This document shows, in pieces, positions 1 to 58,725 of a stretch of DNA of 64,000 bases (its first letter is position 1; every line of letters begins with the position of its first letter). This DNA is from Escherichia coli (GTDB lineage Bacteria; Pseudomonadota; Gammaproteobacteria; Enterobacterales; Enterobacteriaceae). The stretch lies in NCBI RefSeq assembly GCF_051903065.1, contig NZ_CP178438.1; one strand, given 5' to 3'. The notes beneath the pieces are model-generated. The model worked only from the letters and a program-made list of their open reading frames with translations. It did not search any database and was not told where the DNA came from. The position numbers were made by a program, and so were the translations under genes.

Positions 1-2079
<2,079 letters not shown>

Positions 2080-2173
2080 ACAACGCCGAAGCTGTTTTGG
2101 CGGATTGAGAGAAGATTTTCAGCCTGATACAGATTAAATCAGAACGCAGAAGCGGTCTGATAAAACAGAATTT

Positions 2174-2293
2174 GCCTGGCGGCCGTAGCGCGGTGGTCCC
2201 ACCTGACCCCATGCCGAACTCAGAAGTGAAACGCCGTAGCGCCGATGGTAGTGTGGGGTCTCCCCATGCGAGAGTAGGGAACTGCCAGGCATC
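2174..2293 (+). rRNA. rrf: 5S ribosomal RNA
   Basis: Matches the canonical E. coli 5S sequence from tgcctggcggccgtagcgcggtgg to gggaactgccaggcat. Confidence 0.96.
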
Positions 2294-3273: not shown

Positions 3274-3825
3274 TCCAGGAGATGCTCCTGCATGGCTTTC
3301 AGATATGCATTTTCTGCGCGAAGATAACGCAGCTCATTCTTCATCTCTTCCGGCGTCATGTTTGCCTCGTTTTCATGGGTATCATCAGAACGGGTCATGC
3401 TTTTCTCCTTCCTGCGCCTGATAAAGGCCTCATTACCAGATTTGCGGTAGCCTTTTATCCAGTTTTTAACCATGTTGTGGCTGGGAATGTTAAACCGGGC
3501 AGCTACCCGGGGTAGAGACTCAGAATGCCCGAGAGCATAAAGAACCACGCAAAGTTTATCTTCAGGAGAATAGCTACGCTTGTGTCTGCAATCCAGTGCC
3601 TGAGGACCGTGAAGAAGAAAAAGATTAATCCAGTGTGAGAGGCTGGTGTGAGAAAGTTGAAAGAGTTTTGCCGTAGAAATGATGCCTGCATGACCGGCCA
3701 GGTAATGATTTACAGCGGCAAGTTTTACTTCAAATGAATGTTTCATAAACTGCACCTTCAGATGTCAGATTATGTCCAACATTTGGGGTGCAGTTCATGG
3801 CGCGTCTTATCCAGCCTACTCTTGC

Positions 3826-4353
3826 TTATCCGTTCTGCTTTTGCATCCACTCCACCACAAAATCAGCCAGCCCCTCAACATCATTAATATCCAGTAATGC
3901 GACATCAAGATTAAGCGGCACATCACTGGCTACAGCAATAACATGCCTGTCTATCACTAATTCTTCCGGTCGATGTCCGGCTCTATCGCGAAACAGCACA
4001 ATCTTTGCGATCTCTTCATGCTTAAACCCTTCGACCAGAATCAAATCCAGCTTTGAGGTATCCATTCGACTTGCGAGAAAATGTAGATCCAGCTCTTCTT
4101 CGTCTGGTGTTTCCGTCATCAAGGCCCATCGTTGCTGGCTGGCAACGATGGTTTGTGCCGCGCCAGCCTTGCGCAGCTCATAGCTATCTTTGCCTGGCTT
4201 ATCAACATCCATATCATGGTGCGTATGCTTAATCAGCCCTGGACGGAGCCCTCTGGCGCATAATGCCGGGATCAGTTTTTTCAAAAGCGTAGTTTTTCCG
4301 GTACCACTCCACGCGGCAAAGGCGAGTAACGGTATCATCGTTTTTCCTGCCAT
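3826..4353 (-). CDS. mobB: Molybdopterin-guanine dinucleotide biosynthesis adapter protein MobB
   Basis: 175-aa ORF with Walker A motif AWSGTGKTT; overlaps mobA by 19 nt. Confidence 0.9.
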
Positions 4354-4919
4354 CGGGCAAGCTCCTCTGGCGTATTCACGTTAACAAATGCATCTTTATG
4401 ATCGCTGAAATCAACCGCATGCCCGCCAGCCAGACGCATAAATGCCATTACCCGGCGTTCTCCTGCTTGCAGATATTCCAGTAATAAAGGCTCAATAGCG
4501 CGGTTTACCAGAGCAATAGTCGGGTGATCGCGTTCACCGTCATGGACCCACACGACAGGCGCATCTTTGCGCTGATGATTAAGCCGGGCGGCTAAATCAG
4601 GGGGAATGTAAGGCGTATCGCAAGGGCAAAACAAAAACCACTCACCAGCTTCCTGCTGCATTACTGAAAGCATTCCTGCCAGAGGGCCTGGGTAATCCGC
4701 CAGTGAATCTTCAATCACTTTCAGACCGCCTGCCTGATAGATTTCCTGATGACGATTAGCATTAACCACGACGTGAGAGAGCTGCGTCATAAGCGCGTCA
4801 GCGACATGTTGCCACAGCGGTTTGCCATTTAAGTCCAGCAATCCTTTATCTACGCCGCCCATTCGTCTGGCTTTACCGCCTGCCAGCACAACGCCTGTTA
4901 TCGTCGTCATCAGATTCAC
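4335..4919 (-). CDS. mobA: Molybdenum cofactor guanylyltransferase MobA
   Basis: 194-aa ORF with [11 protein letters not shown] motif; the operon partner mobB lies downstream. Confidence 0.92.
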
Positions 4920-4988
4920 CGATATCGCCTCTTTTATTGTGGGATTGACCCTGCTAACGTGTCTGTCTCAAGAGTAAGGAGCATTACT

Positions 4989-5258
4989 ATGAAATGTAAA
5001 CGTCTGAATGAAGTTATTGAACTCCTCCAGCCAGCCTGGCAAAAAGAGCCAGATCTTAACCTGTTGCAATTTTTGCAGAAACTGGCGAAAGAGTCAGGTT
5101 TTGACGGCGAACTGGCGGATTTGACGGATGACATTCTGATCTATCACCTGAAAATGCGTGATTCCGCGAAAGATGCGGTGATCCCGGGTTTGCAGAAAGA
5201 TTATGAAGAAGACTTCAAAACGGCGCTGTTACGCGCTCGCGGCGTAATTAAAGAGTAA
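4989..5258 (+). CDS. yihD: DUF1040 protein YihD (89 aa)
   Basis: Internal ATG start ([14 protein letters not shown]...) chosen from recognition; the ORF track extends 10 codons upstream. Confidence 0.82.
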
Positions 5259-5334
5259 AAGCTTGTAAGCGGCGCCACCAAAATCATCGTGAAATGATAT
5301 CCTTCATCATTCGTAATGTTTTCCGGATGATGGG

Positions 5335-6321
5335 ATGAACAACAGCGCTTTTACTTTCCAGACACTACACCCGGATACCATCATGGACGCTCTGTTTGAG
5401 CAAGGGATCCGGGTGGATTCCGGTCTTACCCCGCTTAACAGCTATGAAAACCGTGTCTATCAATTTCAGGACGAAGATCGTCGACGTTTTGTCGTCAAAT
5501 TTTATCGCCCTGAACGTTGGACAGCCGATCAAATCCTCGAAGAACATCAATTTGCGTTGCAGCTGGTAAATGATGAAGTTCCGGTCGCAGCACCTGTGGC
5601 CTTTAACGGTCAGACTTTATTGAATCATCAGGGATTTTATTTCGCTGTTTTTCCCAGCGTCGGTGGTCGCCAGTTCGAAGCTGATAATATCGATCAGATG
5701 GAAGCGGTTGGGCGTTATTTAGGGCGTATGCACCAGACGGGGCGCAAACAGCTTTTTATCCATCGCCCGACCATCGGTCTGAATGAATATCTCATTGAGC
5801 CACGCAAGCTGTTTGAGGACGCTACACTGATACCTTCCGGGTTGAAAGCGGCATTCCTGAAAGCGACAGATGAGCTGATCGCCGCCGTTACAGCACACTG
5901 GCGGGAAGATTTCACCGTTCTGCGGCTACATGGAGACTGCCACGCCGGGAATATTCTCTGGCGCGATGGTCCAATGTTTGTTGATCTGGATGATGCACGT
6001 AATGGTCCAGCTATTCAGGATTTGTGGATGTTGCTCAATGGCGATAAAGCCGAGCAGCGGATGCAACTGGAAACTATTATTGAAGCTTATGAAGAATTTA
6101 GCGAGTTCGACACCGCTGAAATCGGACTGATTGAACCTTTACGCGCCATGCGTTTGGTTTATTATCTTGCCTGGCTAATGCGGCGTTGGGCTGATCCCGC
6201 GTTCCCGAAAAATTTCCCGTGGTTAACCGGGGAAGATTACTGGCTACGACAGACGGCGACTTTTATAGAACAGGCAAAAGTTCTACAAGAACCCCCTTTG
6301 CAATTAACACCTATGTATTAA
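5335..6321 (+). CDS. srkA: Stress-response Ser/Thr protein kinase SrkA (RdoA/YihE)
   Basis: 328-aa ORF recognised as YihE; kinase-like HGDCHAGN and DLDD motifs; sits immediately upstream of dsbA as in E. coli. Confidence 0.9.
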   Translation: MNNSAFTFQTLHPDTIMDALFEQGIRVDSGLTPLNSYENRVYQFQDEDRRRFVVKFYRPERWTADQILEEHQFALQLVNDEVPVAAPVAFNGQTLLNHQGFYFAVFPSVGGRQFEADNIDQMEAVGRYLGRMHQTGRKQLFIHRPTIGLNEYLIEPRKLFEDATLIPSGLKAAFLKATDELIAAVTAHWREDFTVLRLHGDCHAGNILWRDGPMFVDLDDARNGPAIQDLWMLLNGDKAEQRMQLETIIEAYEEFSEFDTAEIGLIEPLRAMRLVYYLAWLMRRWADPAFPKNFPWLTGEDYWLRQTATFIEQAKVLQEPPLQLTPMY

Positions 6322-13449: not shown

Positions 13450-13596
13450 GATTCGCCTGAACATGCCCTTTTTTCGTAAGTAAGCAACATAAGCTGTCAC
13501 GTTTTGTGATGGCTATTAGAAATTCCTATGCAACAACTGAAAAAAAATTACAAAAAGTGCTTTCTGAACTGAACAAAAAAGAGTAAAGTTAGTCGC

Positions 13597-13705
13597 GTAG
13601 GGTACAGAGGTAAGATGTTCTATCTTTCAGACCTTTTACTTCACGTAATCGGATTTGGCTGAATATTTTAGCCGCCCCAGTCAGTAATGACTGGGGCGTT
13701 TTTTA
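13597..13705 (+). ncRNA. spf: Spot 42 small RNA
   Basis: Sequence gtagggtacagaggtaagatgttctatctttcagacc...gccccagtcagtaatgactggggcgtttttta matches Spot 42; canonical position between polA and engB. Confidence 0.9.
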
Positions 13706-14733: not shown

Positions 14734-14978
14734 ATAGAGCGAGGACGCTAACAGGAACAATGACTCAGGATGAGGGTCAGGAGCGCCAGGAGGCGAAGAC
14801 AGAGGATTGTCAGGAAGACAAACGTCCGGAGACGTAATTAAACGGAAATGGAATCAACACGGATTGTTCCGGCTAATGGAAAAACAGGGTGTGTTGGCGG
14901 CCTGCAAGGATTGTAAGACCCGTTAAGGGTTATGAGTCAGGAAAAAAGGCGACAGAGTAATCTGTCGCCTTTTTTCTT
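14734..14978 (+). ncRNA. csrC: CsrC small RNA (CsrA-sequestering)
   Basis: About 245 nt with many GGA motifs (caggatgagg, caggagcg, caggaagac, ccggagacg, tcaggaaa...) ending in the terminator ggcgacagagtaatctgtcgccttttttc; canonical position between engB and yihI. Confidence 0.85.
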
Positions 14979-15044
14979 TGCTTGCTTTCTGTTAGATTCC
15001 GCCGCAAATCTATACTGAATAAAACGGCTAAAAGACGAACCATT

Positions 15045-15551: not shown

Positions 15552-15739
15552 CGGATTGCCGCCGTGGGCCTTCCCGTTCTGCTGATAACCCTTCCGGTTA
15601 TATGTTATCTGGTGTGGTTATTCGTTAAACTACAGCGGTTGTCGCGGCGACAAAAGTGGCTGCGCAACCGGCTGATGACCCGAAACGGGCATCCGCCGGT
15701 ACGCCGTAGCCGCCAGAGACGCCATCGGAAGGAGTGAGC

Positions 15740-17113
15740 ATGTCTGTACAGCAAATCGACTGGGATCTGGCCCTGATCCAGAAATATAACTATTCCGGGC
15801 CACGATACACCTCGTACCCGACCGCGCTGGAGTTTTCAGAAGACTTCGGCGAACAGGCGTTTTTACAAGCCGTGGCGCGCTATCCTGAGCGTCCATTATC
15901 TCTCTACGTACATATCCCGTTCTGCCATAAGCTTTGTTACTTCTGCGGCTGCAATAAGATTGTTACTCGCCAGCAGCACAAGGCCGATCAGTATCTGGAC
16001 GCGCTGGAGCAAGAAATCGTCCATCGTGCACCGCTGTTCGCCGGGCGTCACGTCAGCCAATTGCACTGGGGCGGCGGAACGCCGACGTATCTTAATAAAG
16101 CGCAAATCAGCCGCCTGATGAAGCTGCTGCACGAAAACTTCCAGTTCAATGCCGATGCGGAGATTTCGATCGAAGTCGATCCGCGGGAAATCGAACTGGA
16201 TGTACTCGATCATTTACGCGCCGAAGGCTTTAATCGCCTGAGCATGGGCGTGCAGGACTTCAACAAAGAAGTGCAACGTCTGGTTAACCGCGAGCAGGAT
16301 GAAGAGTTTATCTTTGCACTGCTTAACCATGCGCGTGAGATTGGTTTTACCTCCACCAACATCGACCTGATTTACGGCCTGCCGAAACAGACGCCGGAAA
16401 GTTTCGCCTTTACCCTGAAACGTGTGGCGGAGCTGAACCCCGATCGTCTGAGCGTCTTTAACTACGCGCATTTGCCGACCATTTTTGCTGCTCAGCGCAA
16501 AATCAAAGATGCTGACCTGCCGAGTCCGCAGCAAAAACTCGATATCCTGCAGGAAACCATCGCCTTCCTGACGCAATCGGGCTATCAGTTTATCGGTATG
16601 GATCACTTTGCCCGTCCTGATGACGAGCTGGCGGTGGCCCAGCGTGAAGGCGTGCTGCATCGTAACTTCCAGGGCTACACCACTCAGGGCGATACCGATC
16701 TGCTGGGGATGGGCGTTTCCGCCATCAGCATGATTGGCGACTGCTACGCGCAGAACCAGAAAGAGTTGAAACAGTACTATCAGCAAGTGGATGAACAAGG
16801 CAATGCGCTGTGGCGTGGTATTGCGCTAACGCGTGATGACTGTATTCGCCGCGATGTGATTAAGTCGCTCATCTGCAACTTCCGTCTGGATTACGCCCCT
16901 ATTGAGAAACAGTGGGATTTGCACTTCGCTGATTACTTTGCGGAAGATCTCAAGCTGCTCGCCCCGTTAGCAAAAGATGGGCTGGTGGATGTGGATGAGA
17001 AGGGGATTCAGGTGACGGCGAAAGGTCGCTTGCTGATCCGCAACATTTGCATGTGCTTTGATACCTATCTGCGCCAGAAAGCGCGGATGCAGCAGTTCTC
17101 TCGGGTGATTTAA
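15740..17113 (+). CDS. hemN: Oxygen-independent coproporphyrinogen III oxidase (radical SAM)
   Basis: CxxxCxxC radical-SAM motif (HIPFCHKLCYFCGCN); about 457 aa. Confidence 0.93.
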   Translation: MSVQQIDWDLALIQKYNYSGPRYTSYPTALEFSEDFGEQAFLQAVARYPERPLSLYVHIPFCHKLCYFCGCNKIVTRQQHKADQYLDALEQEIVHRAPLFAGRHVSQLHWGGGTPTYLNKAQISRLMKLLHENFQFNADAEISIEVDPREIELDVLDHLRAEGFNRLSMGVQDFNKEVQRLVNREQDEEFIFALLNHAREIGFTSTNIDLIYGLPKQTPESFAFTLKRVAELNPDRLSVFNYAHLPTIFAAQRKIKDADLPSPQQKLDILQETIAFLTQSGYQFIGMDHFARPDDELAVAQREGVLHRNFQGYTTQGDTDLLGMGVSAISMIGDCYAQNQKELKQYYQQVDEQGNALWRGIALTRDDCIRRDVIKSLICNFRLDYAPIEKQWDLHFADYFAEDLKLLAPLAKDGLVDVDEKGIQVTAKGRLLIRNICMCFDTYLRQKARMQQFSRVI

Positions 17114-17164
17114 ATAGTGAATGGCGCTTCGTTTACAAAGTAGAAAACGAAAGCGCCATCAATG

Positions 17165-17275
17165 TGCTGAGAACAAGATTGCCTGATGCGCTACGCTTAT
17201 CAGGCCTACAAAACCTGTTGAAAATATTGCTTTTGTAGGCCGGATAAGGCGTTCACGCCGCATCCGGCATGAACA
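17165..17275. repeat. REP elements
   Basis: Palindromic gcctgatgcgctacgcttatcaggcctac ... gtaggccggataaggcgttcacgccgcatccggca units. Confidence 0.55.
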
Positions 17276-17302
17276 AAGAGCACTTCATCAGCAATCTGAA
17301 AC

Positions 17303-17413
17303 TCAACTAAACAGCCCAATCATCGCGGCACACAGCACGGCAGCAACAGCAGTTTGCGGTGTGTGGCTGTCAACTGCGCCACTCGATACCAGATTAATTA
17401 TTGATTCCAGCAT
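17303..17413 (-). CDS. yshB: Small membrane protein YshB (36 aa)
   Basis: Minus-strand ORF MLESIINLVSSGAVDSHTPQTAVAAVLCAAMIGLFS found by manual translation; known small-protein locus between hemN and glnG. Confidence 0.6.
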   Translation of the reverse strand: MLESIINLVSSGAVDSHTPQTAVAAVLCAAMIGLFS

Positions 17414-17524
17414 AATGACTCTCCCCGTTTTCCGGGCAAGATCATACTGAACTTATCGGAACAGTAAAGCGCAAAATACCAGCAATTTGCGCTCAATAAT
17501 CAATCTTTACACACAAGCCGTGAA

Positions 17525-18934
17525 TCACTCCATCCCCAGCTCTTTTAACTTACGCGTCAGGGTGTTACGGCCCCAGCCAAGTAGCCGCGCCGCTTCCTGT
17601 TTATGCCCCTGCGTATGTCGCAACGCGGTCGTCAGTAACGTCCGCTCCAGCTCTGGCTGCGCTTCGGAAAGCAGATTTTGATGACCGGAACGCAGCGCTC
17701 TGTCTGCCCACTGCGCAAGAAGCGTCGCCCAACTGTCCGGTTGCATTTGCGAAGTACTCTCCGCAACCGTTGATTCAAACAGTTCGCCGGGCAAATCCTG
17801 AATCAACACTTCCTGCCCGGCGGCCATCACCGTTAGCCAGCGGCAGGTGTTTTCCAGCTGGCGCACGTTGCCTGGCCACGCCAGACGCGTCAGAGCAGCT
17901 TCGGTTTCCGGATGCAGCAACTTCGCTTCTACGCCCAGTTCGCGCGCGGCAACCTGTAAAAAATGGCGCGCCAGACGGGGAATATCTTCCCGACGCTCAC
18001 GCAGCGGCGGCAGATGAACGCGGATAACGTTCAGGCGGTGGAACAGATCCTCACGGAACTTACCTTCCTGCACCCGCTGTTCGAGATTCTGGTGAGTGGC
18101 AGCGATAATCCGCACATCCACTTTCACCGGCGCATAGCCGCCAACGCGGTAAAACTGGCCGTCTGCCAGCACGCGCAGCAAACGCGTCTGCACATCCAGC
18201 GGCATATCGCCAATTTCATCGAGAAATAATGTACCGCCATCAGCCTGTTCAAAACGCCCCTGACGAATGGTATTCGCGCCGGTAAACGCGCCTTTCTCGT
18301 GACCAAACAGTTCTGATTCGATCAAATCCTTCGGGATAGCCGCCATATTCAGAGCGATAAATGGCGCTTTGGCTCGCGGACTGTGGCGATGCAGGGCATG
18401 AGCGACCAGTTCTTTACCGGTGCCGGATTCGCCGTTAATCAGCACGCTAATAGAAGAACGCGAAAGCCGACCGATAATACGGAACACGTCCTGCATGGCT
18501 GGCGCTTCGCCGATGATATCGGTCGTTGGGCCGTTAAGCTGAACATTACGCGGCTGCTGCTGTTCCTGGTAATGACTGATGGCGCGCTCAACCAGCGCCA
18601 CGGCTTCGTCGATATCAAACGGTTTGGGCAGATAATCAAACGCCCCTTGTTGATAGGCGCTGACGGCAGCATCCAGATCGGAATGTGCGGTCATAATGAT
18701 GACCGGAAGCATCGGATGGCGCTGTTTAATCTGCTTGAGCAGTGCCAGCCCGTCCATTCCCGGCATACGGATATCTGAAAGCAGCACATCCGGCGTTTTG
18801 CTCGCCAGCGCCTCCAGTACCTCCGCGCCGTTCTCAAATGTCGTACAGGTTAAACCCGCTCCAGCGAGCGCACGTTCAAGCACCCAACGGATGGAACTAT
18901 CGTCATCGACTACCCAGACTATCCCTCGTTGCAT
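17525..18934 (-). CDS. glnG: Nitrogen regulation response regulator NtrC (sigma-54 activator)
   Basis: Receiver domain, AAA+ domain ([14 protein letters not shown]) and C-terminal HTH; start at [12 protein letters not shown]. Confidence 0.95.
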
Positions 18935-18945
18935 AAACGTCACCT

Positions 18946-19995
18946 TTATTTCCTGATAGGCAGGTAAACCGAGAACTCGGTATGCCCTGGCCAACTGGTA
19001 AATTCAATTTTGCCTGAATGCTGATCAATCAAATTACGAGCGATGGATAAGCCAAGCCCGGTGCCACCTTCGCGGCCGCTGACCATCGGGTAAAACAGCG
19101 TATCCTGCAAATGAGGCGGAATGCCTGGCCCGTTATCTTCCACATCAATCCGCGCCGCCAGCCGATAGCGTTCGCCGTGTAAGGTCAGTTGAAACGCGGT
19201 ACGGGTACGCAGAATGATTTCACCGCCTTCCGGCCCCAGCGCCTGTAGCGCATTGCGCACAATATTCAGCAAGACCTGTTCAATTTGATCCGGGTCGTGC
19301 GCCAGTTCTGGCAGGCTGGGGTCGTAATCACGAATCAACCGCACGTTGTCCGGCAGTTCCATCGACACCAGCGTCACCACGCGTTCAGCTACTTTGTGAA
19401 TACTTTCGGTCACGCGCGTACCGGGCAGCTGCGGCCCCAACAGACGGTCGACCAGATTTCGCAGCCGGTCCGCCTGTTCGATAATCACTTTGGTATATTC
19501 CAGCAGTGACGGGTCAGGTAATGCTTTGCTGAGTAGCTGCGCCGCGCCACGTAAACCGCCAAGCGGATTTTTAATCTCATGTGCCAGGCCACGCACTAAA
19601 TCACGGGCAGCAACTTGTTGAGCATGTTGTAGCTGTTCCTGGCTTAAGCGGCGCTGGTTATCCATCGGCGCCATCTCCAGCAGGATCATGCCGTCCGGCA
19701 TACGCTGGGCCGTCACAGAAAGGATATGCGAGCGCCCGTCGATGACCAGCGTCACTTCGTTATCGGTAAAACCTTGCCCCGCCTCCAGACTTTCTTGCAT
19801 CAGCTCGATATTTAATGAGAAGTAGCTCAACAGTTCCGGTAACGGTGTACCAAACAATTTGCGGGAGCTTTGGGCGAGCAGTTGTTGCGCGGCGGGGTTG
19901 GCGTAATGGATCGCCAGGTTGTCATCGATTAACAAAATACTGTTAATCAGCGAGTTGAGGATCTGCCCAGCATCGGGCTGCGTGCCTGTTGCCAT
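18946..19995 (-). CDS. glnL: Nitrogen regulation sensor histidine kinase NtrB
   Basis: 349-aa ORF with H-box HEIKNPL and ATP-binding motifs; upstream of glnG. Confidence 0.95.
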
Positions 19996-21729: not shown

Positions 21730-21800
21730 GCTGCACCATGATGTGAATGTTGCACCAATATAGTGCTTCAATGGAAACATTAAGCACCATATTGGTGCAA
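21730..21800 (-). promoter_or_regulatory. NtrC enhancer-binding sites upstream of glnA
   Basis: Dyads of the TGCACC...GGTGCA type (gcaccatattggtgca, ttgcaccaatatagtgc, tgcaccatgatgtg). Confidence 0.55.
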
Positions 21801-21950
21801 TGACCTTTGGATAACCCTTTTTATGCTCCGTGAAAGCGATCACAAAGGGACTCTGCAATACTTGTTTGCGGAGGATGTTTGTGATCCTGTTTTGTAGTGC
21901 GATTAATCCGTGTACAATAACGCGCTATTTCTAATGCCTGAGGCAAAGTT

Positions 21951-23774
21951 GTGATCGAAAAATTGCGTAATATCGCCATCATCGCGCACGTAGACCATGG
22001 TAAAACCACCCTGGTAGACAAGCTGCTCCAACAATCCGGTACGTTCGACTCTCGTGCCGAAACCCAAGAGCGCGTGATGGACTCCAACGATTTGGAGAAA
22101 GAGCGTGGGATTACCATCCTCGCGAAAAACACCGCTATCAAATGGAATGATTACCGTATCAACATCGTTGATACCCCGGGGCACGCCGACTTCGGTGGTG
22201 AAGTTGAACGTGTAATGTCCATGGTAGACTCAGTGCTGCTGGTGGTTGACGCATTTGACGGCCCGATGCCGCAAACGCGCTTCGTAACCAAAAAAGCGTT
22301 TGCTTACGGCCTGAAGCCGATTGTTGTTATCAACAAAGTTGACCGCCCTGGCGCGCGTCCTGATTGGGTTGTGGATCAGGTATTCGATCTGTTCGTTAAC
22401 CTCGACGCGACCGACGAGCAGCTGGACTTCCCGATCGTTTACGCTTCTGCGCTGAACGGTATCGCGGGTCTGGACCACGAAGATATGGCGGAAGACATGA
22501 CCCCGCTGTATCAGGCGATTGTTGATCACGTTCCTGCGCCGGACGTTGACCTTGACGGTCCGTTCCAGATGCAGATTTCTCAGCTCGATTACAACAGCTA
22601 TGTTGGCGTTATCGGCATTGGCCGCATCAAGCGCGGTAAAGTGAAGCCGAACCAGCAGGTCACTATCATCGATAGCGAAGGCAAAACCCGCAACGCGAAA
22701 GTCGGTAAAGTGCTGGGCCACCTCGGTCTGGAACGTATCGAAACCGATCTGGCGGAAGCTGGCGATATCGTGGCGATCACGGGCCTGGGCGAACTGAACA
22801 TTTCTGACACCGTTTGCGACACGCAAAACGTTGAAGCGCTGCCGGCACTCTCCGTTGATGAGCCGACCGTTTCTATGTTCTTCTGCGTTAACACCTCGCC
22901 GTTCTGCGGTAAAGAAGGTAAGTTCGTAACGTCTCGTCAGATCCTGGATCGTCTGAACAAAGAACTGGTACACAACGTTGCGCTGCGCGTAGAAGAAACC
23001 GAAGACGCTGATGCGTTCCGCGTTTCTGGTCGTGGCGAACTGCACCTGTCTGTTCTGATCGAAAACATGCGTCGTGAAGGTTTCGAACTGGCGGTATCCC
23101 GTCCGAAAGTTATCTTCCGTGAAATCGACGGTCGTAAACAAGAGCCGTATGAAAACGTGACTCTGGACGTTGAAGAACAGCATCAGGGTTCTGTAATGCA
23201 GGCGCTGGGCGAACGTAAAGGCGACCTGAAAAACATGAATCCAGACGGTAAAGGCCGCGTACGTCTCGACTACGTGATCCCAAGCCGTGGTCTGATTGGC
23301 TTCCGTTCTGAGTTCATGACCATGACTTCCGGTACTGGTCTGCTGTACTCCACCTTCAGCCACTACGACGACGTACGTCCGGGCGAAGTGGGTCAGCGTC
23401 AGAACGGTGTACTGATCTCTAACGGTCAGGGTAAAGCGGTCGCGTTCGCGCTGTTCGGTCTGCAGGATCGCGGTAAGCTGTTCCTCGGTCACGGTGCAGA
23501 AGTTTACGAAGGTCAGATTATCGGTATTCATAGCCGCTCTAACGACCTGACTGTAAACTGCCTGACCGGTAAGAAACTGACCAACATGCGTGCTTCCGGT
23601 ACTGACGAAGCCGTTGTTCTGGTTCCGCCTATCCGCATGACTCTGGAACAAGCTCTGGAGTTCATCGATGATGACGAACTGGTAGAAGTGACTCCGACCT
23701 CTATCCGTATTCGTAAACGTCACCTGACGGAAAACGATCGTCGCCGCGCCAACCGCGCACCGAAAGACGATTAA
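21951..23774 (+). CDS. typA: Ribosome-associated translational GTPase BipA/TypA
   Basis: 607-aa ORF with G-domain motifs [18 protein letters not shown]. Confidence 0.95.
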
Positions 23775-23792
23775 TTTCGTTTTTTAGTTATA

Positions 23793-23823
23793 AAAAACCT
23801 GCCATCGCTGGCAGGTTTTTTTT
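23793..23823 (+). terminator. Rho-independent terminator after typA
   Basis: Hairpin aacctgccatcgctggcaggtt followed by a T-run. Confidence 0.6.
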
Positions 23824-23990
23824 TACCTGTCGTGAGCGCACACCAATGCGAGTATCTCCCTTATAAGTCTGTGATTACGTCAATAGAGAGCTTTGTCACA
23901 ATTATCTGCAAAGTCATACGCCGTTAATTGCTTTCTTTTTTGGCGTAAGCGTAAGATGCTTCATCTGGTTTAAACCAAAAGGATTAAACA

Positions 23991-36291: not shown

Positions 36292-39200
36292 TTACACCTT
36301 TTCCACATTCACAAGGAAGGACTTAAACTCCGGCGTCTGCGTGTTTGCATCACCAACGAATGGCGTTAACGTATTGGCAATAAAGCCTTTTTTAGCTACG
36401 CCTTCATAGCCCCAGTGAATCGGAATACCGATGGTATCGATATCTTTGCCGTTCGCTTTCAGCGTGCGAATACGTTTGGTCACCACCGCTTTGGCTTTGA
36501 TATAGCCACGGTTGGAGGAGACTTTCACGGTATCGCCCTGGGCAATGCCAAGTTTATTCGCCAGCGACTCCCCGATTTCCACAAACTGCTCTGGTTGCAA
36601 AATCGCGTTCAACAGCGCGTGTTTGGTCCAGTAGTGGAAGTGCTCGGTCAGACGATAGGTGGTTCCGACATACGGGAACTTATCGGCTTTACCCAATGCT
36701 TCGGCGTCGTCTTTAAAGATTCGCGCAGCCGGGTTCGAGATAACGTTTGGATGCAGCGGGTTAGTTCCCAGCGGCGTTTCAAACGGCTCGTAGTGTTCCG
36801 GGAACGGACCTTCCGCCATCTTATCGAGGGCAAACAGACGCCCCATGCCTTCCTGCTGCATGATAAACGGCCCGACGCCGCTACCCGGAGGCGCTGCGCT
36901 GTAGTCCGGAATATCCCAGCCGGTCCACTTAGTGCCGTCCCATTTCAGCAACTGACGCTTCGGATCCCACGGGTTACCCTGCGGATCTGCGGAGGCGCGG
37001 TTATACAGAATGCGGCGGTTAAGCGGCCATGCCCATGCCCAGCCCAGCGTGTTACCGAGGCCAGACGGATCGGCGTTATCACGGCGTGCCATCTGGTTGC
37101 CTTCCGGCGTCCAGCTACCGGCGAAAATCCAGCAGCCACAGGAGGTTGTACCGTCATCGCGCAATTGGGCGAACGAGCTAAGTTGTTGGCCTTTCTTGAC
37201 GATAACCGCACCGGTTGCCGGATCGGTAATATCGGCCAGCGCCTTACCGTTGCTCTCCATCGCTACTTCTTCCGACTTCGGCTCATGCGGAATGGCGTAG
37301 TTCCAGGTCATGTTCAGCACTTGGTCCGGGTTCGCGCCACCCTGTTCGGCATACATCTTGCGCAAGCGCAGGAAGATACCGGAGAGGATCTCGCCGTCAG
37401 TCAGCGCAATCCCCGGGGCGTCCGCACCTTTCCAGTGCCACTGTAACCAGCGACCTGAGTTAACGATAGAACCGTTCTCTTCCGCGAAGCAGGTCGATGG
37501 CAGACGGAACACTTCGGTCTGGATCTTCGACGAGTCAACTTCGTTCAGCTCACCGTGGTTCTGCCAGAAGTTAGAGGTTTCAGTGTTCAGCGGGTCGATG
37601 GTGACGAGGAACTTCAGTTTCGACAGACAACCGATCACTTTGTTTTTGTTCGGGAATGAGGCAACAGGGTTAAAGCCCTGGCAGATATAGCCATTGACCT
37701 TGCCCTCTTTCATCATCTCGAAGTATTGCAGGACGTCGTAGCCTTTATCCCACTTCGGCAACCAGTCAAAGCCCCAGCTATTTTCCGCCGTCGCTTTATC
37801 ACCAAAGAAGGCCTTCATCATGGAGACGAAGAATTTCGGGTAGTTGCCCCAGTAGTTTACCTGGCCTTCCAGCAGCGGTTTTGGCGTGTTGGCGGTAAGG
37901 TAGGTTTGCAGATCGGTCTGCTTCTCGCTTGGCAGCGTCATGTAACCTGGCAGGCTCTGCGACAGCAGCCCCAGGTCCGTCAGCCCCTGAATATTGGAGT
38001 GACCGCGCAGGGCGTTAACGCCGCCGCCAGCCATCCCCATGTTACCGAGCAGCAGCTGGATCATCGCCATCGTACGAATGTTTTGCGCACCAACGGAGTG
38101 TTGCGTCCAGCCGAGGGCATACAGGAACGAGGCAGTTTTATCGTGAGCACTGGTTTCTGCGATGTATTCGCAGACTTTCAGGAACGCGTCTTTTGGCGTA
38201 CCACAGATGTTTTCAACCACATCTGGCGTGTAGCGGGAAACGTGCTGTTTCAGCAAGTTCCACACGCAGCGCGGATGTTGCAGCGTGGTATCGCGTTTGG
38301 CGAAGCCGTTTTCGTCCAGTTCGTAAGTCCAGGAGGATTTATCGTACTTGCGTTTTTCCGCGTCGTAGCCGGTGAACAGGCCATCTTCAAAGCCGTAATC
38401 CTCACGCACGATCAGGCTGGCGTTGGTATAGGCTTCGGTGTATTCGCGGTTGAATTTTTCATTGTTCAGCAGGTACAGCAATACGCCTGACAGGAAAGCA
38501 ATGTCAGTACCGGAACGAATAGGGGCATAGTAGTCAGCCACCGCAGCCGTACGCGTAAAGCGAGGATCGATCACAATCAGCTTCGCGCCATTGTGAATTT
38601 TGGCTTCCATCGCCCAGCGGAACCCGACCGGGTGAGCTTCAGCGGCGTTACCGCCCATCACCACGACGAGGTTGGCGTTCTTGATGTCGACCCAGTGGTT
38701 GGTCATCGCACCGCGACCAAATGTTGGAGCAAGACTTGCTACCGTTGGTCCGTGTCAGACACGCGCCTGGTTGTCGACCGCGAGCATACCCAGCGCGCGG
38801 GAGAATTTTTGCGTTAAATAGCCGGTTTCGTTACTCGACGCGGAAGCACACAGCATCCCGGTGGAGAGCCAGCGGTTAACAGTCACGCCTTCGGCGTTTT
38901 GCGCAATGTAGTTAGCATCGCGGTCTTCTTTCATCAGTTTGGCGATGCGATCAAACGCCTCTTCCCAACTGATTTGCTGCCATTTATCAGAACCTGGCGC
39001 ACGGTATTCCGGAAACTTCAGACGGCTTTCGGAGTGGATGAAATCCACCAGGCCAGCGCCTTTCGGACAAAGTGCACCGCGGTTGACCGGGTGATCCGGA
39101 TCGCCTTCGATATGGAAGATAGATGCTTTGGCGTTTTTTGCTCCGTCACCGAGGCTGTACATCAACAGCCCACAGCCTACGGAACAATAGGTGCAGGTAT

Positions 39201-49431: not shown

Positions 49432-49847
49432 GTCGGATGCACGACCCGTAGGCCGGATAAGGCGCTCGTGCCGCATCCGGCAATCAATGCCTGATGCGAC
49501 GCTGTCGCGTCTTATCAGGCCTACAACTATTGCCGACCTGTAGGCCGGATAAGGCACTTGTGCCGCATCCGGCAATCAATGCCTGATGCGACGCTGTCGC
49601 GTCTTATCAGACCTACAACTATTGCCGACCTGTAGGCCGGATAAGGCGCTCGTGCCGCATCCGGCAATCAATGCCTGATGCGACGCTGTCGCGTCTTATC
49701 AGGCCTACAACTATTGCCGACCTGTAGGCCGGATAAGGCACTTGTGCCGCATCCGGCAATCAATGCCTGATGCGATGTCGCGTCTTATCAGGCCTACAAC
49801 TGTTGCCGACCTGTAGGCCGGATAAGGCACTTGTGCCGCATCCGGCA
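49432..49847. repeat. BIME: tandem array of about 4.5 REP-pair units (~91 bp each) between rhaD and rhaA
   Basis: The unit gcctgatgcgacgctgtcgcgtcttatcaggcctacaactattgccgacctgtaggccggataaggc[gctcg or acttg]tgccgcatccggcaatcaat repeats with minor variants. Confidence 0.88.
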
Positions 49848-58629: not shown

Positions 58630-58725
58630 CGGAGTGTAGGCCTGATAAGACGCTATCAGCGTCGCATCAGGCATCCTGCTCAAATGCCGGATGCGGCGTA
58701 AACGCCTTATCCTGCCTACAAATGC
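58630..58725. repeat. REP elements
   Basis: gcctgataagacgctatcagcgtcgcatcaggc ... gccggatgcggcgtaaacgccttatcctgcctac. Confidence 0.6.

Follow-up and report, generated by a model that had tools for sequence, protein, structure and literature searches.

The 36-codon open reading frame on the minus strand at 17303-17413 of the window, by which we mean the whole 64,000-nt stretch of Escherichia coli DNA analysed here, corresponds to yshB, a gene already annotated in E. coli, and as a discovery it offers nothing new. Taken whole, the explanation that we consider highly probable is that this is the known yshB, transcribed from its own promoter and encoding a small, putatively membrane-anchored protein, for which action on a larger partner is a tentative proposal. 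The frame runs from an ATG (17413-17411) through 36 codons to a TGA stop (17305-17303), has no alternative in-frame start before an upstream TAA, and encodes MLESIINLVSSGAVDSHTPQTAVAAVLCAAMIGLFS (translation). The original prediction had placed a 36-codon ORF here, in the hemN-glnG spacer, and its translation agrees exactly with ours. It had also named the ORF as yshB at a known small-protein locus, which is borne out by the RefSeq annotation (WP_000893994.1, "YshB family small membrane protein", exactly the same coordinates), by the match to the NCBIfam equivalog NF033841 "small_YshB" (72.1 bits, twice the curated cutoff of 34 bits; E = 2.4e-20; residues 1-36 on profile positions 1-40 of 40), and by an exact-sequence look-up in UniRef, which returned YSHB_ECOLI, "Uncharacterized protein YshB".

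The annotation is equally consistent in other genomes. When the spacer was compared by megablast with 5,426 complete E. coli genomes, the yshB annotation lay under the match, and RefSeq calls yshB in every E. coli genome listed. For example, in NZ_CP024273 the same protein accession at locus L001 3190-3300 corresponds to window positions 17303-17413 on the same strand. Compared to K-12 YshB (YSHB_ECOLI, WP_000893994.1, NF033841, PF28018), the protein, the position between glnG and hemN, and the strand are all identical, whereas the window DNA differs in three synonymous changes, in a single SNP upstream, and in the sequence right past the stop codon. A Pfam-A scan of YshB found no family at E <= 1; the copy scanned probably predates PF28018 (YshB), since the orthologues carry this family in precomputed annotations. 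A PADLOC scan found nothing. Descriptions of the gene in print go back to 2008 (Hemm et al. 2008, cited in PMC9731577). In the mechanical ORF list it is one among many ORFs of 20-40 codons, and as a genuine sub-50-codon gene recovered from raw sequence by the original prediction it can serve as a positive control. What is left is the biochemical role and partner of YshB, a matter of some interest given that Salmonella reportedly needs its 92% identical protein for virulence.

The spacer that holds yshB is 411 nt long (Table 1). Farther upstream, beyond glnG, lie glnL and then glnA, also on the minus strand.

Table 1. Features at the yshB locus and Rfam matches elsewhere in the window
Feature	Position	Strand	Basis or remark
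yshB CDS	17303..17413	-	translation, RefSeq, NF033841, dN/dS
glnG (ntrC)	17525..18934	-	upstream neighbour, same strand; conserved
hemN	15740..17113	+	downstream neighbour, convergent to yshB
Candidate sigma-70-type promoter	17441..17468	-	consensus scan, 9/12 matches
Shine-Dalgarno GGGGAG	17421..17426	-	read from sequence; GGAG ends 7 nt before ATG
Hairpin AGCGCAAA-N9-TTTTGCGCT	17468..17493	-	read from sequence; just past glnG stop, abuts yshB -35
BIME, two inverted REP elements	17196..17268		inverted repeats I1 + I2; downstream of yshB stop
Long hairpin	17121..17160		minimum-free-energy structure; directly after hemN stop, no T-run on either strand
23S rRNA 3' part + 5S rRNA	1-2290		Rfam
Spot 42	13587-13705		Rfam
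ES222	21762-21869		Rfam; near glnA
STnc370	23759-23827		Rfam
SECIS_3	38702-38760	-	Rfam; selenoprotein gene
Four tandem naRNA4/REP units	49451-49794		Rfam
Another naRNA4 unit	58639-58716		Rfam
ES036	63721-63762		Rfam

Conservation and coding constraint

To describe conservation within E. coli, we used a 181-nt query comprising the promoter and the yshB ORF without the REP elements, and required at least 95% identity. This segment is present as one copy in 5425 of the 5426 complete genomes, whereas the spacer matches a median of 39 places per genome on account of its REP elements. Four E. coli strains that are up to about 3% apart in the 181-nt segment share one identical protein accession. The differences among them within the ORF are all at third positions and synonymous (codons 10, 22, 30, and 36), and directly 3' of the stop codon the strains diverge by indels.

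Beyond E. coli, the reading frame follows glnG across related genera. Among the 80 Proteobacteria glnG loci listed, which were chosen regardless of yshB and are scattered with one Enterobacteriaceae member, the only homologue was that of Citrobacter werkmanii (86% identity, directly after glnG), and no homologue followed glnG in Photorhabdus, Vibrio, Shewanella, Pseudomonas, and the others, which points to an absence of yshB outside the order among the loci listed. A HMMER search of 1.84 billion representatives returned 15 YshB matches, all with the core HTPQTA..A..CA, a number that reflects the rarity of ORF calling in metagenomes and not the true family size. The most divergent full-length members are named Erwiniaceae and Erwinia tracheiphila proteins (53% and 60% identity), and the Salmonella enterica protein, which falls in the same 90% cluster, is identical at 33 of 36 residues (V23L, M31L, I32V). 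Conservation of the frame in related genomes was the check proposed with the original prediction, and the frame is indeed intact in Citrobacter and in Erwiniaceae including Erwinia tracheiphila, with the Salmonella protein 92% identical. The window protein shares the traits of this family (36-37 residues, the core HTPQTA..A..CA, and a C-terminal hydrophobic helix), and its gene, as in the rest of the family, comes directly after glnG in the same orientation.

All related loci (Citrobacter, Erwiniaceae, and metagenomic relatives) retain the order glnA-glnL-glnG-yshB, and hemN is the convergent neighbour of yshB in the relatives except E. tracheiphila. In that species (L084-L087, about 3795-5423), a SBP_bac_5 solute-binding gene lies between yshB and hemN and the glnG-yshB adjacency is kept, so that the conserved link is to glnG and not to hemN.

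Some of the database entries are irregular. Several of the 15 HMMER matches are frameshifted or extended gene calls, and extended or frameshifted 'YshB' proteins include P0002, P0005-P0008, and P0026, with P0007 fused into a frame of the REP region. At locus L088 (3001-3156), the yshB stop codon is changed to TAT, and glnG is split there, which suggests a low-quality contig. Such entries are probably assembly errors or real stop-loss variants.

ORF length is no evidence for a gene at this locus, since shuffling the spacer 2000 times with dinucleotides preserved gave an ATG-initiated ORF of at least 36 codons in 1713 cases (86%), and gene status therefore rests on comparative evidence. A 37-codon ORF also adjoins yshB at 17206-17319, within the REP region. 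Between E. coli and Citrobacter, the yshB sequences show 16 synonymous and 5 non-synonymous differences (Nei-Gojobori), corresponding to a dS of 1.05, a dN of 0.07, and a dN/dS of 0.06. The ratio is 0.13-0.16 in comparisons with two further relatives (L089 and L088) and with the Erwinia tracheiphila locus (L084); against other Erwiniaceae, synonymous sites are saturated and the frame is intact. Variable alignment columns number 23, 10, and 32 at codon positions 1, 2, and 3, respectively. Of the six frames, that of yshB alone has no stop in any of the six lineages; the other five are each broken in at least 4 of the 6. Conservation independent of codon phase, the criterion for a non-coding sRNA, was not found at yshB. 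Judging from this pattern of substitutions, yshB is under strong purifying selection.

Expression signals and the 3' region

Upstream of yshB, the candidate promoter consists of a -35 element TTTACT (17468-17463), a 16-nt spacer, and a -10 element TATGAT (17446-17441), from which transcription would start near 17433-17437. In an alignment of seven lineages (E. coli, Citrobacter, L088, L089, and three Erwiniaceae loci), TTTAC, GTAT.AT, the GGG core of the Shine-Dalgarno sequence, and the ATG are invariant, whereas the spacer around them diverges. A promoter of its own has been reported for yshB, with no induction by nitrogen limitation (PMC9731577). In the 5' leader (17423-17436, minus strand), the arrangement CCCG-GAAAA-CGGG could pair the G-run of the Shine-Dalgarno sequence with an upstream C-run. 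As a candidate Shine-Dalgarno-sequestering hairpin (17436-17423), it was dropped: the arms are conserved in most lineages without covariation, and the structure is absent in Erwinia tracheiphila. We also rejected a leader peptide or attenuator ORF, as the next gene, hemN, is convergent with a BIME in between and there is no co-directional structural gene downstream.

E. coli, Citrobacter, and L089 share the hairpin between glnG and the promoter, AGCGCAAA-N9-TTTTGCGCT, which is degraded in L088 and the Erwiniaceae. In K-12 and the two other sampled strains, G17472A breaks one of its G-C pairs. It is possibly a weak or leaky terminator of glnALG or a regulatory site for the yshB promoter.

On the other side of the gene, the 197-nt region 3' of yshB has a folding z of -9.4, and a sub-threshold naRNA4/REP match lies at 17238-17274. 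When the hemN-glnG spacer was scanned for intrinsic terminators, none was detected, and neither the hairpin at 17468-17493 nor that at 17121-17160 was called. Given the lack of a canonical terminator in the spacer, the 3' end of yshB is ascribed to the REP hairpins, which probably define or stabilise it. The long hairpin (17121-17160) would be a bidirectional 3'-end element between the convergent hemN and yshB.

The YshB protein and its possible role

The small hydrophobic protein that the original prediction described is recognisable in YshB, in which the last 16 of 36 residues are uniformly hydrophobic. This stretch (residues 21-36) is an uninterrupted run of only 16 residues and has no flanking positive charges. 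YshB family members contain no Lys and no Arg, and their net charge comes from E3, D/E15, and His. A single-pass membrane peptide devoid of positive charge is unusual, and without Lys or Arg the positive-inside rule gives no topology. In seven members, M1, E3, H17, T18, Q20, T21, A22, A25, C28, A29, and F35 are invariant. An AlphaFold2 model built from the 7-sequence alignment, with moderate confidence (mean pLDDT 72), predicts a helix at residues 2-13, a break at 14-16, and a 19-residue helix at 17-35. With a muH of 0.33-0.49, the N-terminal segment is amphipathic. On the C-terminal helix, the invariant residues lie on one face, a clustering equalled in tightness by 1300 of 100000 random subsets (1.3%), which is a modest significance from seven sequences. 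A profile search of the PDB with YshB matched no chain even at E <= 10.

Published work adds direct observations of the protein. YshB was detected in E. coli by top-down mass spectrometry, and the authors attribute its absence from bottom-up data to the lack of tryptic sites (PMC12529367). The intramembrane protease RseP cleaves tagged YshB, a class I substrate that was positive in all four assays, which covered plasmid-borne and chromosomal RseP, two tag types, and the purified enzyme; cleavage was observed with tagged constructs only, and a possible effect of the tags on topology is pointed out by the authors (PMC10470546). A ribosome-profiling-based estimate predicts more than 11,000 copies of YshB per stationary-phase cell (Li et al. 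2014, as cited in PMC7549839), and in one study C-terminally His-tagged YshB was undetectable by western blot (PMC7549839). According to Bomjan et al. 2019 (cited in PMC10470546 and PMC9731577), YshB of Salmonella promotes virulence and replication inside host cells. This virulence phenotype is reported for the Salmonella protein only, to which the E. coli protein is identical at 33 of 36 residues. Based on the 19-residue model helix and the RseP cleavage of the tagged form, which support it indirectly, we regard YshB as a putative membrane protein, the label given to it in the original prediction.

A mechanism can be proposed on these grounds. It starts from what is shown, namely that yshB is a conserved gene that is translated and has its own promoter. 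This conserved sigma-70-type promoter lies a short way 3' of glnG, and the 36-residue YshB is translated from a strong Shine-Dalgarno sequence. A short amphipathic N-terminal helix (residues 2-13), interfacial or cytoplasmic, would be followed by a polar hinge and by the C-terminal helix (17-35), which opens with the invariant HTPQTA and may serve as a single tail-anchored-like inner-membrane anchor ending at the C-terminus. YshB would then pack helix against helix on a larger inner-membrane protein or complex, making contact through the small-residue face of the C-terminal helix (T21/A22, A25, and C28/A29), and its binding would tune the activity or stability of this partner, with RseP turnover limiting YshB abundance.

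Several small inner-membrane regulators have such partners, including MgrB (PhoQ), AcrZ (AcrB), MgtS (MgtA), and CydX (cytochrome bd). Like these, YshB has fewer than 50 residues and one hydrophobic helix, is independently transcribed, and is conserved in enterobacteria; unlike them, it has no Lys or Arg and a hydrophobic helix that reaches the very C-terminus, and it shares no sequence similarity with them. The likeness is one of probable mode of action and not of family membership. The screen that included YshB also had MgrB and CydX among its RseP candidates (PMC10470546). By analogy with other small membrane proteins, we tentatively suggest that YshB is a single-pass modulator of a larger inner-membrane partner, a proposal to be held with some reserve. 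His17 and Cys28 are invariant and lie on or near one helical face. A more specific version, in which YshB is a putative dedicated accessory subunit or regulator of a particular inner-membrane complex, His17 and Cys28 bind a partner or ligand (e.g., a metal), and the strict linkage to glnALG in Enterobacteriaceae and Erwiniaceae marks a nitrogen or ammonium role missed by transcript-level studies, appears unlikely.

Other readings of the locus have to be weighed against this one. That yshB is a chance ORF propagated by annotation pipelines has next to no probability: the frequency of such ORFs in shuffled spacers and the adjoining 37-codon frame would favour it, but the conserved frame, the selection acting on it, and the detection of the protein by mass spectrometry refute it. 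It is very improbable that the transcript is a non-coding or dual-function small RNA in which the ORF is incidental or secondary. An intergenic locus that forms a short transcription unit of its own, with a structured, REP-containing 3' end, would fit such an RNA, and the Bomjan work of 2019 in which Salmonella yshB came up was reportedly a small-RNA study. Against this stand a strong predominance of synonymous substitutions (dN/dS of 0.06-0.16 when E. coli is compared with four relatives), within-species ORF polymorphisms confined to third positions, the lack of any Rfam family at threshold on the ORF, and the peptide found by top-down mass spectrometry (PMC12529367). A role of the RNA alongside coding is possible.

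In every lineage examined, even where hemN is displaced, yshB lies directly 3' of glnG and is read in the same direction, and the hairpin that separates them can at best terminate weakly. This could instead mean that yshB is a fourth cistron of glnALG, reached by read-through and part of the nitrogen regulon. The conserved promoter between glnG and yshB speaks against this reading, which we consider improbable. A type I toxin-like peptide in the style of Hok, Ldr, or Ibs, which would damage the membrane on accumulation and be held down by RseP, is suggested by the likeness to HokB and HokE, as YshB is small and hydrophobic and belongs with them among the class I substrates of RseP (PMC10470546). 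Toxin loci, however, are patchy and multi-copy, whereas yshB belongs to the core genome, with one copy in 5425 of 5426 genomes and synteny across families. Unlike HokB and HokE, it has no detected antisense RNA: no known antisense RNA family was found at the locus, no Rfam match lies at or near threshold on the ORF, and the opposite-strand frames are not conserved. YshB also lacks a charged tail. An abundance as high as that predicted for stationary phase (>11,000 copies; cited in PMC7549839) is hard to reconcile with a toxin, and loss of function in Salmonella is described as reducing fitness in host cells (cited in PMC10470546 and PMC9731577). The probability of a toxin is accordingly very small.

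Other features of the window

The Rfam matches elsewhere in the window (Table 1) all reach the gathering score. The sRNA CsrC (RF00084, 277.9 bits) lies at 14734-14987 on the plus strand, between yihA and yihI. For the two neighbours of yshB, start positions differ between sources. The mechanical ORF list starts hemN at a GTG at 15734 (459 aa), compared to 15740 (457 aa) in RefSeq, and the glnG ORF reaches a TTG at 18994 (489 aa), compared to the annotated 469 aa. In NZ_CP024273, a pseudogene annotated as 'hypothetical protein; frameshifted; internal stop' (L001 647-813, about 14760-14926 of the window) falls inside CsrC, and this call is probably spurious.
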